DNA from: a virus
Virus genome (UHGV): UHGV-0175557
DNA: 43,714 nt
Reading direction: 5' to 3' (one strand)
Position 1 is the stretch's first letter, and each line of letters starts with the position of its first letter. Below are positions 39,287-40,350 of the stretch, in pieces. A model generated the notes under the pieces. That model did not search any database, was not told the DNA's origin, and worked only from the letters and a program-made list of their open reading frames with translations. The position numbers and the translations under genes were made by a program.

Positions 39287-39499
39287 ATCTTCAACCGATA
39301 CTTCAATCCACGATGCGGGAACCGGATATTCAGTCCGGTACATAAACAAGGATGTTCCTATCAACCCGTGTGGGTCTGTTTTAATCCCTCGCATGTTCAA
39401 CAATGGAAAAAACTGTTCGCGTGTTTGTGGCAATCTTGCAAAGCGTCCTGTCGGACGTTTAGCAGGATCCATAGGGTTGAATTCAACGATTGTGGACAT
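39266..39499 (-). CDS. hypothetical protein (77 aa)
   Basis: Track ORF; convergent with the spanin genes. Confidence 0.4.
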   Translation of the reverse strand: MSTIVEFNPMDPAKRPTGRFARLPQTREQFFPLLNMRGIKTDPHGLIGTSLFMYRTEYPVPASWIEVSVEDLLKTVY

Positions 39500-40004
39500 A
39501 ACAATAACTCCTGTACGCTTGTCGTTTTATTTTCTGATAGTCAGAAACTTTTACAGATCTCGTTTTACATTCACCGATATGATGTGGGTCGAAAACAAAC
39601 ATCACCTGTGAACGGTCATTTCCACCTGCAGGTAACCCGGTGTCAGGATCTACAAACGCTATACGACCTTTAAATACACATAGTTCTGAACAATGTGTCA
39701 GTGCTTTGTGAAACCAGTCTGCAGACGTCATAGCGTTCACGAGTAATAACGAACCAGTTCCCTGATGAACAGTGGTTATTATTTTATTAACCCAGGGAGA
39801 CGGATCGCTGTATGGTGGGTTACACCAGATGAACCCACCACCATTACTTTGAACAATCGAATGCCAGTCTTTATTCAGACTATCAGTGATAAACAACGAA
39901 CATTTAGCGTTAGAACCATCGGTACACACATCAAGAACAAGTGGGAATTCACGAGAAACGTTATCAATAAAATCCCACGGTGTTTCCCAGTTGTCTTTAG
40001 CCAT
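39483..40004 (-). CDS. dam: DNA N6-adenine methyltransferase (phage Dam-type)
   Basis: ATG 40004 (MAKDNWETPWDF...); NPPY motif in FIWCNPPYSDPSPW. Confidence 0.75.
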   Translation of the reverse strand: MAKDNWETPWDFIDNVSREFPLVLDVCTDGSNAKCSLFITDSLNKDWHSIVQSNGGGFIWCNPPYSDPSPWVNKIITTVHQGTGSLLLVNAMTSADWFHKALTHCSELCVFKGRIAFVDPDTGLPAGGNDRSQVMFVFDPHHIGECKTRSVKVSDYQKIKRQAYRSYCYVHNR

Positions 40005-40350
40005 GTTCCGGTACACTCTCCACACTGTAATACACAGGAATACCCAGACGTTCAGCTTCTGCAATTTCCGCAATAGTCCCGGACGAACGACGATAATCAG
40101 GAAGCACCAGAACGGCATCACAACGGCGCATAACTTCTAACGTACCTGATAGGTAGTATTCAGGTTGTATATTGCGTAAACCACCGTCAAAGTCCCACAA
40201 TTCGGTGTTCTTGTGAGGAATGATCGGGAACCACCCCGGACGTTGTAACGCCAGTCGTTTACCCGCCTGTTCAGCACGTGACACGTTACGGGATGTTTTA
40301 AGCGCACAATCAGCACGATAAGGCCCGGCAATGTAACAGAGTTTAATCAT
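39997..40350 (-). CDS. DUF4406 / nucleoside 2-deoxyribosyltransferase-like protein
   Basis: ATG 40350 with AGGAAA SD; MIKLCYIAGPYRAD...DAVLVLPDYRRSSGTIAEIAEAERLGIPVY matches the NDT-like pattern. Confidence 0.65.
   Translation of the reverse strand: MIKLCYIAGPYRADCALKTSRNVSRAEQAGKRLALQRPGWFPIIPHKNTELWDFDGGLRNIQPEYYLSGTLEVMRRCDAVLVLPDYRRSSGTIAEIAEAERLGIPVYYSVESVPEHG

Follow-up and report, generated by a model that had tools for sequence, protein, structure and literature searches.

A Dam-family methyltransferase gene translationally coupled to a nucleoside 2-deoxyribosyltransferase-like gene in a 9NA-like phage

In the window analyzed here, a 43,714-nucleotide stretch of viral DNA (UHGV virus genome UHGV-0175557), a gene for a Dam-family N6-adenine methyltransferase directly follows a gene for a small protein that resembles nucleoside 2-deoxyribosyltransferases (NDTs). 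This arrangement raises the question of whether the two genes form a module that alters the chemistry of the phage genome beyond methylation, as originally predicted, or encode enzymes that act separately.

A compact gene string with an orphan methyltransferase

The window comes from a Sashavirus/Nonanavirus phage, that is, an E. coli siphophage of the 9NA/Sasha type. A 2.1-kb stretch is 96-97% identical to isolated phages including PDP46 (96.7% identity to the window), AVIO78A and Bas82, and 188 homologues of the NDT-like protein were found at E ≤ 1e-3, so that both genes are real and conserved rather than chance open reading frames (ORFs). Both are already annotated in the near-identical phages, and their annotation is in this sense routine. 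The original prediction of a Dam-type methyltransferase with an NPPY motif and a DUF4406/NDT-like gene at 39483-40350 holds with respect to the positions and to both identities (Table 1). The mechanically delineated ORF of the methyltransferase spans 39483-40121 (212 aa, GTG start), whereas the true start, as given by PDP46 and Bas82, is the ATG at 40004.

Table 1. Genes of the string that starts with the DNA polymerase, and putative active-site residues of the NDT-like protein
Feature	Position	Strand	Details
DNA polymerase	41253..43109	-	618 aa; first gene of the string within the window
Conserved 178-aa protein, between polymerase and NinX-like gene	40677..41213	-	phrog_19205, E = 5e-108; no Pfam match
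NinX-like gene	40343..40684	-	113 aa; PF10765, E = 5e-6; phrog_444; directly upstream of the NDT-like gene
NDT-like gene (DUF7768/DUF4406)	39997..40350	-	117 aa; ATG at 40350, stop at 39997
Putative active site, NDT-like protein	Y6, R12, H46, S89, E95	-	E95 codon 40068-40066
Dam-family methyltransferase	39483..40004	-	173 aa; PF05869, phrog_111; same annotation in PDP46 and Bas82
Conserved 77-aa protein, last gene of the string	39266..39499	-	phrog_25980, E = 1e-53

The genes from the polymerase on are tightly packed, all on the minus strand, with a 39-nt gap after the polymerase gene. The stop of the NinX-like gene overlaps the start of the NDT-like gene by 8 nt, the stop of the NDT-like gene overlaps the start of the Dam gene by 8 nt as well (in ATGGCTAA), and the stop of the Dam gene overlaps the start of the 77-aa gene by 17 nt. 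The Dam gene thus follows the NDT-like gene in the literal sense of the 8-nt stop/start overlap, and the two genes are adjacent and translationally coupled. A consensus scan of the minus strand from the polymerase stop (41253) to 39266 detected no terminator-like sites and no promoter-like sites save one weak 9/12 match, at 41125-41097, which falls within the 178-aa gene; over the scanned region, there were 6 promoter-like sites compared with a shuffle mean of 12.3, that is, fewer than in shuffled sequence. As for the claim that the pair belongs to the same operon as the DNA polymerase, the common strand, the 39-nt gap and the outcome of the scan make the operon plausible, albeit unproven. The name of the polymerase is the one given in the annotations of all relatives compared; a Pfam search of this protein at E ≤ 0.01 yielded no match. 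The 178-aa gene has the identical length of 537 nt in all relatives compared, and the position of the NinX-like gene is kept in 9NA, Sasha and Carvaje.

The methyltransferase matches PF05869 over residues 2-143 (109.3 bits, cut-off 28.1, E = 2e-31), phrog_111 (E = 4.5e-48) and the PADLOC orphan methyltransferase model (E = 1e-16), and is a borderline miss for the TIGR01712 (phage_N6A_met) equivalog, with 91.9 bits, just below the cut-off of 97.05. Residues 62-65 (nt 39821-39810), NPPY, fit the catalytic (D/N)PP(Y/F) motif. No relative turned up when PDB sequences were searched with the Dam protein. Like the phage orphan Dams, this is a single-domain protein of ~170 aa with NPPY and no adjoining restriction endonuclease: no nuclease model of PADLOC or Pfam matches the NDT-like or the 77-aa neighbor, and the enzyme is an orphan methyltransferase lacking a cognate endonuclease. 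The Dam homologue of HK97 adjoins a NinE-family gene, and the Dam gene of the window likewise lies among small nin-type genes (NinX-like).

The characterized members of PF05869/TIGR01712, namely, T1 Dam, HP1 Dam and the Dam of the Stx phages VT2/933W, all target GATC, and by this family precedent, GATC is the likeliest target of the window enzyme. From these characterized GATC enzymes, however, the window Dam is highly divergent, with less than 40% identity to them among the matches listed. It is 98.8% identical at the protein level to its AVIO78A counterpart and, again among the matches listed, 30-39% identical to phage Dams beyond its six near-identical relatives. Given this low identity and the score below the TIGR01712 cut-off, GATC specificity is an extrapolation. 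The genome contains 159 GATC sites, with an observed/expected ratio of 0.83-0.97, which means that GATC is not avoided. Compared with other 4-mer palindromes, too, GATC showed no signal, and such palindrome statistics cannot reveal the specificity.

The active site of the NDT-like protein

The NDT-like protein scores above the cut-offs of DUF7768 (36.6 bits, cut-off 26) and DUF4406 (30 bits, cut-off 22), and its score of 17.0 bits against Nuc_deoxyrib_tr (PF05014) is below the cut-off of 28.8. It matches phrog_355, ‘nucleoside 2-deoxyribosyltransferase’ (E = 4.8e-26), which is also the GenBank name of the gene in 9NA, Sasha, Carvaje and AVIO78A. Its true family consists of the small phage and prophage proteins of DUF7768/DUF4406/DUF1937 (phrog_355; the hypothetical protein in PDB 1t1j), from which it does not differ. 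Our literature searches on this family returned three passing mentions of DUF4406, papers that matched PF05014, and no matches for DUF1937 or DUF7768.

The AF2 model of the protein (pLDDT 95.3) had its best Foldseek matches to NDTs (6evs, E = 1e-4; 2a0k), 1t1j, MilB/BcmB and DNPH1, with query-normalized TM-scores of ~0.46-0.68, the highest being that of 1t1j (0.68); the same listing includes PDB 4hx9 and, at lower similarity, the Thoeris protein ThsB2. In PDB sequence searches, the protein or its profile had marginal matches only (BcmB, E = 0.2). Across 37 homologues with 40-90% identity, Y6, G9, N22, H46, C77, S89, G91 and E95 are invariant, and R12, E72, R76 and D78 are nearly so. We checked whether the catalytic residues were lost and found that they were not: in HMM alignments, Y6 and E95, both in the invariant set, fall on the Tyr and Glu that form the catalytic pair in T. 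brucei NDT, BcmB and Rcl. The invariant catalytic set fits an active enzyme.

The residue in which true NDTs differ from the nucleotide-specific N-glycosidases is located six positions before the Glu. In true NDTs, an Asp in this position binds the nucleoside 5'-OH, whereas the corresponding Ser of Rcl/DNPH1 binds the 5'-phosphate; an Asp to Ser change reportedly shifts an NDT to dNMP substrates, as in the designed phosphodeoxyribosyltransferase of PDB 4hx9. In the window protein, S89 is matched by Asp in T. brucei NDT (PDCGTAFE), yet by Ser in BcmB (VSPGTHIE) and by Ser87 in rat Rcl; furthermore, R12 aligns with R19, and H46 with H45, of Rcl. Because a Ser replaces the nucleoside-binding Asp, as in DNPH1/Rcl and BcmB, we predict from the active-site signature that the NDT-like protein acts as an N-glycosidase on (d)NMPs and does not exchange bases between nucleosides, and both the class of substrate and the hydrolase, as opposed to transferase, outcome are part of this prediction. 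The substrate is likely to be a free 5'-monophosphate, not DNA. The claim that the enzyme exchanges bases on deoxynucleosides is hard to reconcile with Ser89 and with the PF05014 score below the cut-off.

The similarity to DNPH1/Rcl and MilB/BcmB extends to the NDT fold, the strand-1 Tyr, the Glu nucleophile within an S-x-G-x-x-x-E motif that places the Ser six residues before the Glu, an Arg that follows the first Gly-rich loop and a His that follows strand 2. The differences are that the window protein is far smaller (117 aa vs about 150-175 aa), that the C-terminal segment of Rcl, with a second phosphate-binding Ser, is absent or unalignable, and that there are additional family-specific invariants, N22 and C77, along with the near-invariant R76. 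The weak alignment with Rcl (hhalign E = 0.005, probability 7%), made with an Rcl sequence in which the residue numbering agrees with the literature, stops at residue 109 of 117. The position of Rcl D69 (human D80), or NDT D72, is occupied by Thr70 in this low-confidence part of the alignment, and by Asp in a few homologues, so that the chemistry may differ from that of Rcl, although the near-invariant E72 lies just two positions further on. The PF05014 NDTs (those of L. leichmannii and T. brucei, and the dA-preferring phage NDT) are the best structural matches and share the Tyr/Glu pair, but have the 5'-OH-binding Asp where the window protein, itself below the PF05014 gathering score, has Ser89.

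With moderate confidence, we favor the explanation that the locus encodes two accessory enzymes that act separately, a methylase and a nucleotide N-glycosidase, and that no non-canonical DNA is made. Under this scenario, the two genes, situated at the end of the string of replication genes, would be co-transcribed, with coupled translation. Dam would carry out SAM-dependent N6-adenine methylation of the phage DNA during replication, most likely at GATC, and would thereby protect this DNA against those restriction systems that recognize the respective site. The NDT-like enzyme would cleave the N-glycosidic bond in a free (deoxy)nucleotide that carries a 5'-phosphate, via a covalent Glu95-(deoxy)ribosyl-5-phosphate intermediate, with Tyr6 positioning the nucleophile and Ser89, possibly together with Arg12, holding the 5'-phosphate. 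Such chemistry would be of the DNPH1/Rcl or MilB/BcmB type, not nucleoside base exchange, and its role could be nucleotide-pool conditioning, that is, removal or recycling of a particular (d)NMP.

An exchangeable methylase slot and its counterparts in unrelated phages

The pairing of the two genes is not a one-off because the NDT-like gene of every 9NA-like phage compared is immediately followed by a methyltransferase gene. The former is constant, and the latter is one of three cassettes: an N6_N4 methyltransferase of 375-393 aa in 9NA, Sasha and SP069, with a 506-aa variant of this large enzyme in VLCpiS10a; a different N6_N4 enzyme, of 259 aa, in Carvaje; and the 173-aa Dam in the window phage, PDP46 and Bas82. 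Each cassette has an ATG start that overlaps the stop of the NDT-like gene. At the other end, Dam and the large N6_N4 enzymes terminate alike, in YVHNR, and this C-terminal tail, common to different methyltransferases, is encoded by the conserved beginning of the following gene (the first 17 nt of the 77-aa gene in the window). The cassettes have been exchanged exactly between the conserved flanks, and the occupant of the slot has been replaced at least twice. Given that the occupants differ among relatives, the content of the slot is probably adapted to the repertoire of restriction systems in the host.

Methyltransferases also recur near homologues of the NDT-like gene in unrelated phages. 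Pfam-confirmed methyltransferases are encoded within 1 kb of a homologue in 9 of the 36 IMG/VR lineages, leaving 27 without one. Ten of the 14 Pfam-confirmed methyltransferases found within ±5 kb are within 1 kb, where 22% would be expected (p about 1e-4, for lineages that are not phylogenetically independent). These neighbors belong to the C5 (PF00145), N6_N4 (PF01555) and Dam (PF05869) families, and methyltransferases (14 ORFs, counting MT-A70) are the commonest recognizable class among the 150 neighboring ORFs. In the L051/L058 lineage, just a LAGLIDADG homing endonuclease gene lies between the NDT-like and methyltransferase genes. The motif-bearing ORFs of two loci (L060 and L086) are not methyltransferases and were dropped from the counts. 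The enrichment was not reproduced at loci from bacterial genomes, where 4 of the 13 motif-bearing ORFs, in 30 lineages, lie within 1 kb (p = 0.34); this test relied on motif detection only, in GC-rich DNA, and is accordingly weak either way. The bacterial set consisted of 40 loci, of which 39 were analyzed and 9 were at least 90% identical to IMG/VR loci. Candidate methyltransferase-NDT fusions among the long ORFs of related loci turned out to be in-frame read-through of upstream sequence, which in one case (L057) takes in an HNH endonuclease domain. Both the NDT-like and the methyltransferase genes are typical residents of the replication/accessory region.

The local enrichment of methyltransferases beside homologues in unrelated phages challenges the notion of separate action, and the alternative is that the NDT-like enzyme serves methylation, either by cleaving S-adenosylhomocysteine (SAH), which all SAM-dependent methyltransferases generate and which inhibits them, or by destroying m6dAMP, 5mdCMP or m4dCMP released from degraded methylated DNA. 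We consider such coupling unlikely. In its favor are the stop/start overlap preserved in all 9NA-like phages despite at least two methyltransferase replacements, the proximity of three methyltransferase families to the homologues, the prevalence of methyltransferases among the recognizable neighbors, and the lineage in which a homing endonuclease alone parts the two genes. That the linked enzymes modify different bases suggests a shared cofactor or product, rather than a particular base, as the common denominator. DNPH1 acts on hmdUMP and LOG acts on N6-alkyl-AMP, an analogy that lends itself to the cleavage of methylated mononucleotides. However, no methyltransferase lies within 1 kb in the majority of the IMG/VR lineages, the bacterial genomes show no enrichment by motif detection, no fusions were found among the long ORFs of the related loci, and the statistics come from non-independent lineages and from genes that are both usual in the replication/accessory region. 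Moreover, E. coli has an efficient SAH nucleosidase, Pfs, and we know of no NDT-fold enzyme that acts on SAH.

In its general form, this idea would make the DUF7768/DUF4406 proteins dedicated helpers of phage methylases, small N-glycosidases for S-adenosylhomocysteine or methylated mononucleotides, which appears slightly more doubtful still. Such a helper role would explain why the NDT-like gene is kept upstream of a repeatedly refilled methylase slot and why C5, N4/N6 and Dam-type enzymes alike occur next to its homologues in unrelated phages.

Anti-defense and DNA modification as alternative functions

It is also possible, although improbable, that the NDT-like protein is an anti-defense factor that depletes a nucleotide precursor, destroys a nucleotide immune signal or counters retrons with NDT effectors that are triggered by methyltransferases, in which case it would adjoin the methyltransferase because both are counter-defense genes. 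The methylase slot is a counter-restriction locus in its own right, and there are precedents: T5 Dmp lowers dAMP and blocks Kongming (bioRxiv 10.1101/2024.12.20.629578), and the effector of retron Ec86 is NDT-like and is released by the action of a phage methylase on msDNA (PMC13276650). The presence of Thoeris ThsB2 among the lower-similarity fold matches is in line with this possibility. On the other hand, no PADLOC model matches the NDT-like protein at E ≤ 0.1, so that kinship to the retron effectors modeled in that library was not detectable, and direct kinship to the NDT/TIR effectors of retrons or Thoeris was dropped from consideration. A dNMP kinase, the trigger of Kongming, is not annotated in PDP46 bases 1-50,000, and Bas82, which carries the same NDT-like/Dam gene pair, showed no unusual robustness to the immunity systems tested (PMC11990801). 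The strict conservation of the full catalytic set also speaks against a mere decoy subunit.

As for DNA modification, NDT-family enzymes can exchange bases, the catalytic residues of the NDT-like protein are intact, and a PF05014 NDT of predicted 2,6-diaminopurine phages reportedly prefers dA and is a proposed part of that pathway; however, the NDTs of unmodified phages lacked transglycosylation in the same study (bioRxiv 10.1101/2025.10.22.683976). Diaminopurine, 7-deazaguanine and hydroxymethyl-pyrimidine modules include genes for base synthesis, dNTP sanitization or transglycosylation, whereas in PDP46 bases 1-50,000, no genes for base biosynthesis, nucleotide kinases or DNA transglycosylases, and none for PurZ/DatZ/MazZ, deazaguanine synthesis or hydroxymethylases, are annotated. 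The BASEL authors recognized no modification locus in Bas82 and its relatives and described Bas82 as ‘markedly sensitive to RM systems’ (PMC11990801), in contrast to the broad restriction resistance that is expected of hypermodified phages. Our literature search on phage 9NA and methylation found nothing relevant. Together with Ser89 in place of the nucleoside-binding Asp, the PF05014 score below the threshold, the swapping of the methyltransferase while the NDT-like gene stays in place, and the lack of a methyltransferase neighbor in most of the unrelated phages, these observations make it highly improbable that the pair is a module altering DNA beyond methylation, with the NDT-like enzyme introducing or providing a non-canonical base.

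The active-site signature casts doubt on the phrog_355 label ‘nucleoside 2-deoxyribosyltransferase’, which is probably wrong in detail, and nucleotide N-glycosidase fits better. DUF7768/DUF4406 is a large and widespread family of phage proteins, for which linkage to methylases is a modest question. The conserved gene order, with the NDT-like gene ahead of a methyltransferase that can be swapped, recurs to some degree in unrelated phages and is a testable lead to the function of phrog_355, and a functional linkage, if true, would represent a new accessory activity in the anti-restriction methylation of phages.

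Gene string and the Dam methyltransferase

The gene string, established by ORF listing together with direct reading of the minus strand, extends from the DNA polymerase to a small protein downstream of Dam (see the table), and consecutive genes from the 178-aa gene to the 77-aa gene overlap by 8, 8, 8 and 17 nt. The original prediction that the Dam gene directly follows the NDT-like gene was borne out in every particular by the coordinates, overlaps and family matches. A mechanically called 212-aa Dam ORF, starting at an upstream GTG, was rejected: it enters the NDT-like gene, and the annotated start in relatives differs. 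A consensus scan from the polymerase stop to position 39266 detected no terminator-like sites and, on the minus strand, no promoter-like sites other than one weak match (9/12) within the 178-aa gene; promoter-like sites in the scanned region were rarer than in shuffled sequence.

Genes of the string, with positions in the window
Feature	Coordinates	Strand	Basis
DNA polymerase	41253-43109	-	ORF listing
178-aa unknown protein	40677-41213	-	ORF listing
NinX-like gene	40343-40684	-	ORF listing, strand reading
NDT-like gene, 117 aa, ATG at 40350	39997-40350	-	ORF listing, strand reading
Dam gene, 173 aa, ATG at 40004	39483-40004	-	ORF listing, strand reading
77-aa unknown protein	39266-39499	-	ORF listing, strand reading

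Judging from profile matches, Dam is clearly a PF05869 enzyme (109 bits against a cut-off of 28.1; NPPY motif at residues 62-65; also matching phrog_111); its TIGR01712 score (91.9 bits) is just under the cut-off of 97.05. Within the family it is an outlier: among the 2015 phage records matching Dam, identity is at least 95% in six and below 60% in all others, the best of which are Vibrio phages (35-39%) and HK97 and Stx phages (~33%). By analogy with relatives that have been characterised, GATC may reasonably be guessed as its target. The window contains 159 GATC sites, near expectation. As a separate observation, CTAG is strongly depleted (11 sites versus ~49 expected under a Markov model, ratio 0.23), and AGCT (0.65) and GGCC (0.77) mildly so. 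Public annotation of Dam varies among near-identical phages, the 98.8%-identical gene of AVIO78A (MZ726797.1 38146-38664) being labeled merely “hypothetical protein”.

A methylase slot in 9NA-like phages and its surroundings

The 2.1-kb stretch around the pair shares 96-97% identity with the Escherichia phages PDP46, vB_EcoS_AVIO78A, KarinMuster_Bas82 and PJ16, as it does with two “Sashavirus” records, and 80% with Salmonella phage 9NA. On this evidence, the window belongs to the genome, ~56-58 kb long, of a 9NA/Sasha-type siphophage. We compared annotations of the region in 9NA, Sasha, SP069, Carvaje, VLCpiS10a, PDP46 and Bas82. All seven share the order polymerase, 178-aa gene, small gene (in most relatives labelled NinX or NinX-like), NDT-like gene and methyltransferase, and six have the 77-aa gene next, none being annotated in SP069. 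In the window, the methyltransferase itself is the 173-aa Dam. 9NA, Sasha and SP069 have an N6_N4 enzyme of 375-393 aa, of which VLCpiS10a carries a 506-aa variant, and the N6_N4 enzyme of Carvaje (259 aa) is unrelated. For all three kinds, the ATG of the cassette overlaps the last codons or stop of the NDT-like gene (Dam and 77-aa genes of the table; in homologous phage loci with local coordinates, L002 3067-4465, L003 1955-3353, L004 2470-3498 and L006 1756-3493). Dam and the large N6_N4 enzymes also share a C-terminal YVHNR, because the 77-aa gene, with its conserved 5' end, supplies these codons. The exchange of cassettes is thus exact, which implies a fixed methylase slot with a swapped occupant, presumably driven by the restriction systems of different hosts, and the NDT-like gene is its constant neighbour. 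The endolysin, just upstream of the pair on the opposite strand, is a second swapped cassette: it has 129 aa in the window (38186-38575, +), 9NA and Bas82, and a 186-aa “glycosyl hydrolase” takes its position in PDP46 (locus L001, 2805-3365).

The linkage between the NDT-like gene and the methylase is real within the 9NA-like group; beyond it, the evidence is suggestive, and the linkage is not robust and clearly not obligatory. From 80 IMG/VR loci with NDT-like homologues, we set aside the eight most similar to the window (L008-L015, ~90-97% identity) and clustered the remainder at 80% identity into 36 lineages, calling methyltransferases by motif screening followed by Pfam confirmation. In nine of these lineages, a DNA methyltransferase (C5 PF00145, N6_N4 PF01555 or Dam PF05869) lies no more than 1 kb from the NDT-like gene. 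Of the confirmed methyltransferases within ±5 kb, 10 of 14 are inside 1 kb, compared with 22% predicted by the length of flank available (p ~1e-4; counting more conservatively gives 4e-3). Of the 150 neighbouring ORFs that reach 115 aa, more could be recognised as methyltransferases (14, two of them MT-A70) than as members of any other class, helicases included. Loci from bacterial genomes (40, of which 39 were analysed, in 30 lineages; nine at least 90% identical to IMG/VR loci), subjected to motif screening only, showed no enrichment (4/13 within 1 kb, p=0.34), and no methyltransferase-NDT fusion proteins were found in related loci.

Two endonuclease domains were observed near NDT-like genes. 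In one unrelated phage lineage (L058 5218-7038; L051 5218-6165, 6119-7453), the NDT-like gene and an N6_N4 methyltransferase are separated by a LAGLIDADG homing-endonuclease domain, which in L058 shares the reading frame of the methyltransferase; this position suggests insertion of a homing endonuclease into an originally adjacent pair. In a Pseudomonas-prophage lineage (L057 4470-5393), the NDT-like domain is immediately preceded, in the same frame, by an HNH endonuclease domain, which more probably represents a separate gene joined to it by crude ORF calling than part of a fusion.

Family and active site of the NDT-like protein

In Pfam, both DUF7768 and DUF4406 match the NDT-like protein above threshold, and PF05014 scores under threshold; the protein also matches phrog_355 and has 188 homologues in a database search. 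An alignment of 37 homologues (40-90% identity) shows Y6, G9, N22, A26, P45, H46, C77, S89, G91, E95, A99 and P105 to be invariant and A8, P10, R12, E72, R76, D78, A79 and V80 nearly so, a pattern expected of an active enzyme. Y6 and E95 align to the catalytic Tyr and the Glu nucleophile of the superfamily in both profile and sequence alignments, so that the catalytic residues, whose loss would have counted against the original prediction, are kept. Against the PDB, the confident AlphaFold model (pLDDT 95.3) best matches nucleoside 2-deoxyribosyltransferases, 1t1j (a hypothetical protein), the CMP N-glycosidases MilB and BcmB, and DNPH1.

Six positions before the Glu, T. brucei NDT has Asp, whereas the NDT-like protein has a Ser (the invariant S89), as do BcmB and rat Rcl. 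Structural work on Rcl/DNPH1 and on an engineered phosphodeoxyribosyltransferase shows that members of the superfamily with Ser here bind a 5'-phosphate and those with Asp a nucleoside. R19 and H45 of Rcl align with R12 and H46. Thr70 aligns with Asp69 of Rcl, and nothing in the protein could be aligned with the C-terminal part of the phosphate site in Rcl. Because of these two differences, and because all sequence similarities are marginal, we file the protein in DUF7768/DUF4406. Judging by these residues, its most likely activity would be that of a nucleotide N-glycosidase of the DNPH1 or MilB type, membership in neither family being claimed.

Possible roles of the pair

The pair consists of ordinary, already annotated phage genes. 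Probably, the two act independently: the methyltransferase would be an orphan adenine enzyme filling an exchangeable counter-restriction slot, and the NDT-like protein a nucleotide N-glycosidase that may condition the nucleotide pool. A role of the glycosidase in support of methylation, through removal of SAH or methylated dNMPs, seems unlikely, although it would account for a linkage to methylases whose base specificities are unrelated. To a similar degree, we doubt a counter-defence role in which the enzyme would attack nucleotide precursors or signals: there are precedents in T5 Dmp, directed against Kongming (bioRxiv 10.1101/2024.12.20.629578), and in retron Ec86, whose NDT effector is triggered by a methylase (PMC13276650), but the protein shows no PADLOC similarity.

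The adjacency and gene identities of the original prediction stand; the hypermodified DNA chemistry proposed with them is very improbable, nothing pointing to it: the first 50 kb of the near-identical PDP46 genome carry dUTPase, replication and recombination genes and no annotated base-synthesis, nucleotide-kinase or transglycosylase gene, and the BASEL study recognised no modification locus in Bas82 and its relatives (PMC11990801). In that study, Bas82, which has the pair, is reported to be markedly sensitive to RM systems. The PF05014 NDT that a recent preprint implicates in diaminopurine phages differs in being a genuine nucleoside transferase that occurs alongside DatZ and PurZ; the NDTs of unmodified phages were inactive there (bioRxiv 10.1101/2025.10.22.683976). 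The only other genes with a nucleotide-metabolism flavour seen in the window are a dUTPase (PF00692; 15503-16051, -) and its divergent neighbour (16277-17035, +), a 252-aa protein with a C-terminal DUF6378 match; its homologue in PDP46 bears the annotation “nucleotide modification associated domain 1”.

Two small new points emerge: the “nucleoside 2-deoxyribosyltransferase” label of a large phage protein family is probably a mislabelling, and an NDT-like gene followed by a swappable methylase is a conserved arrangement.
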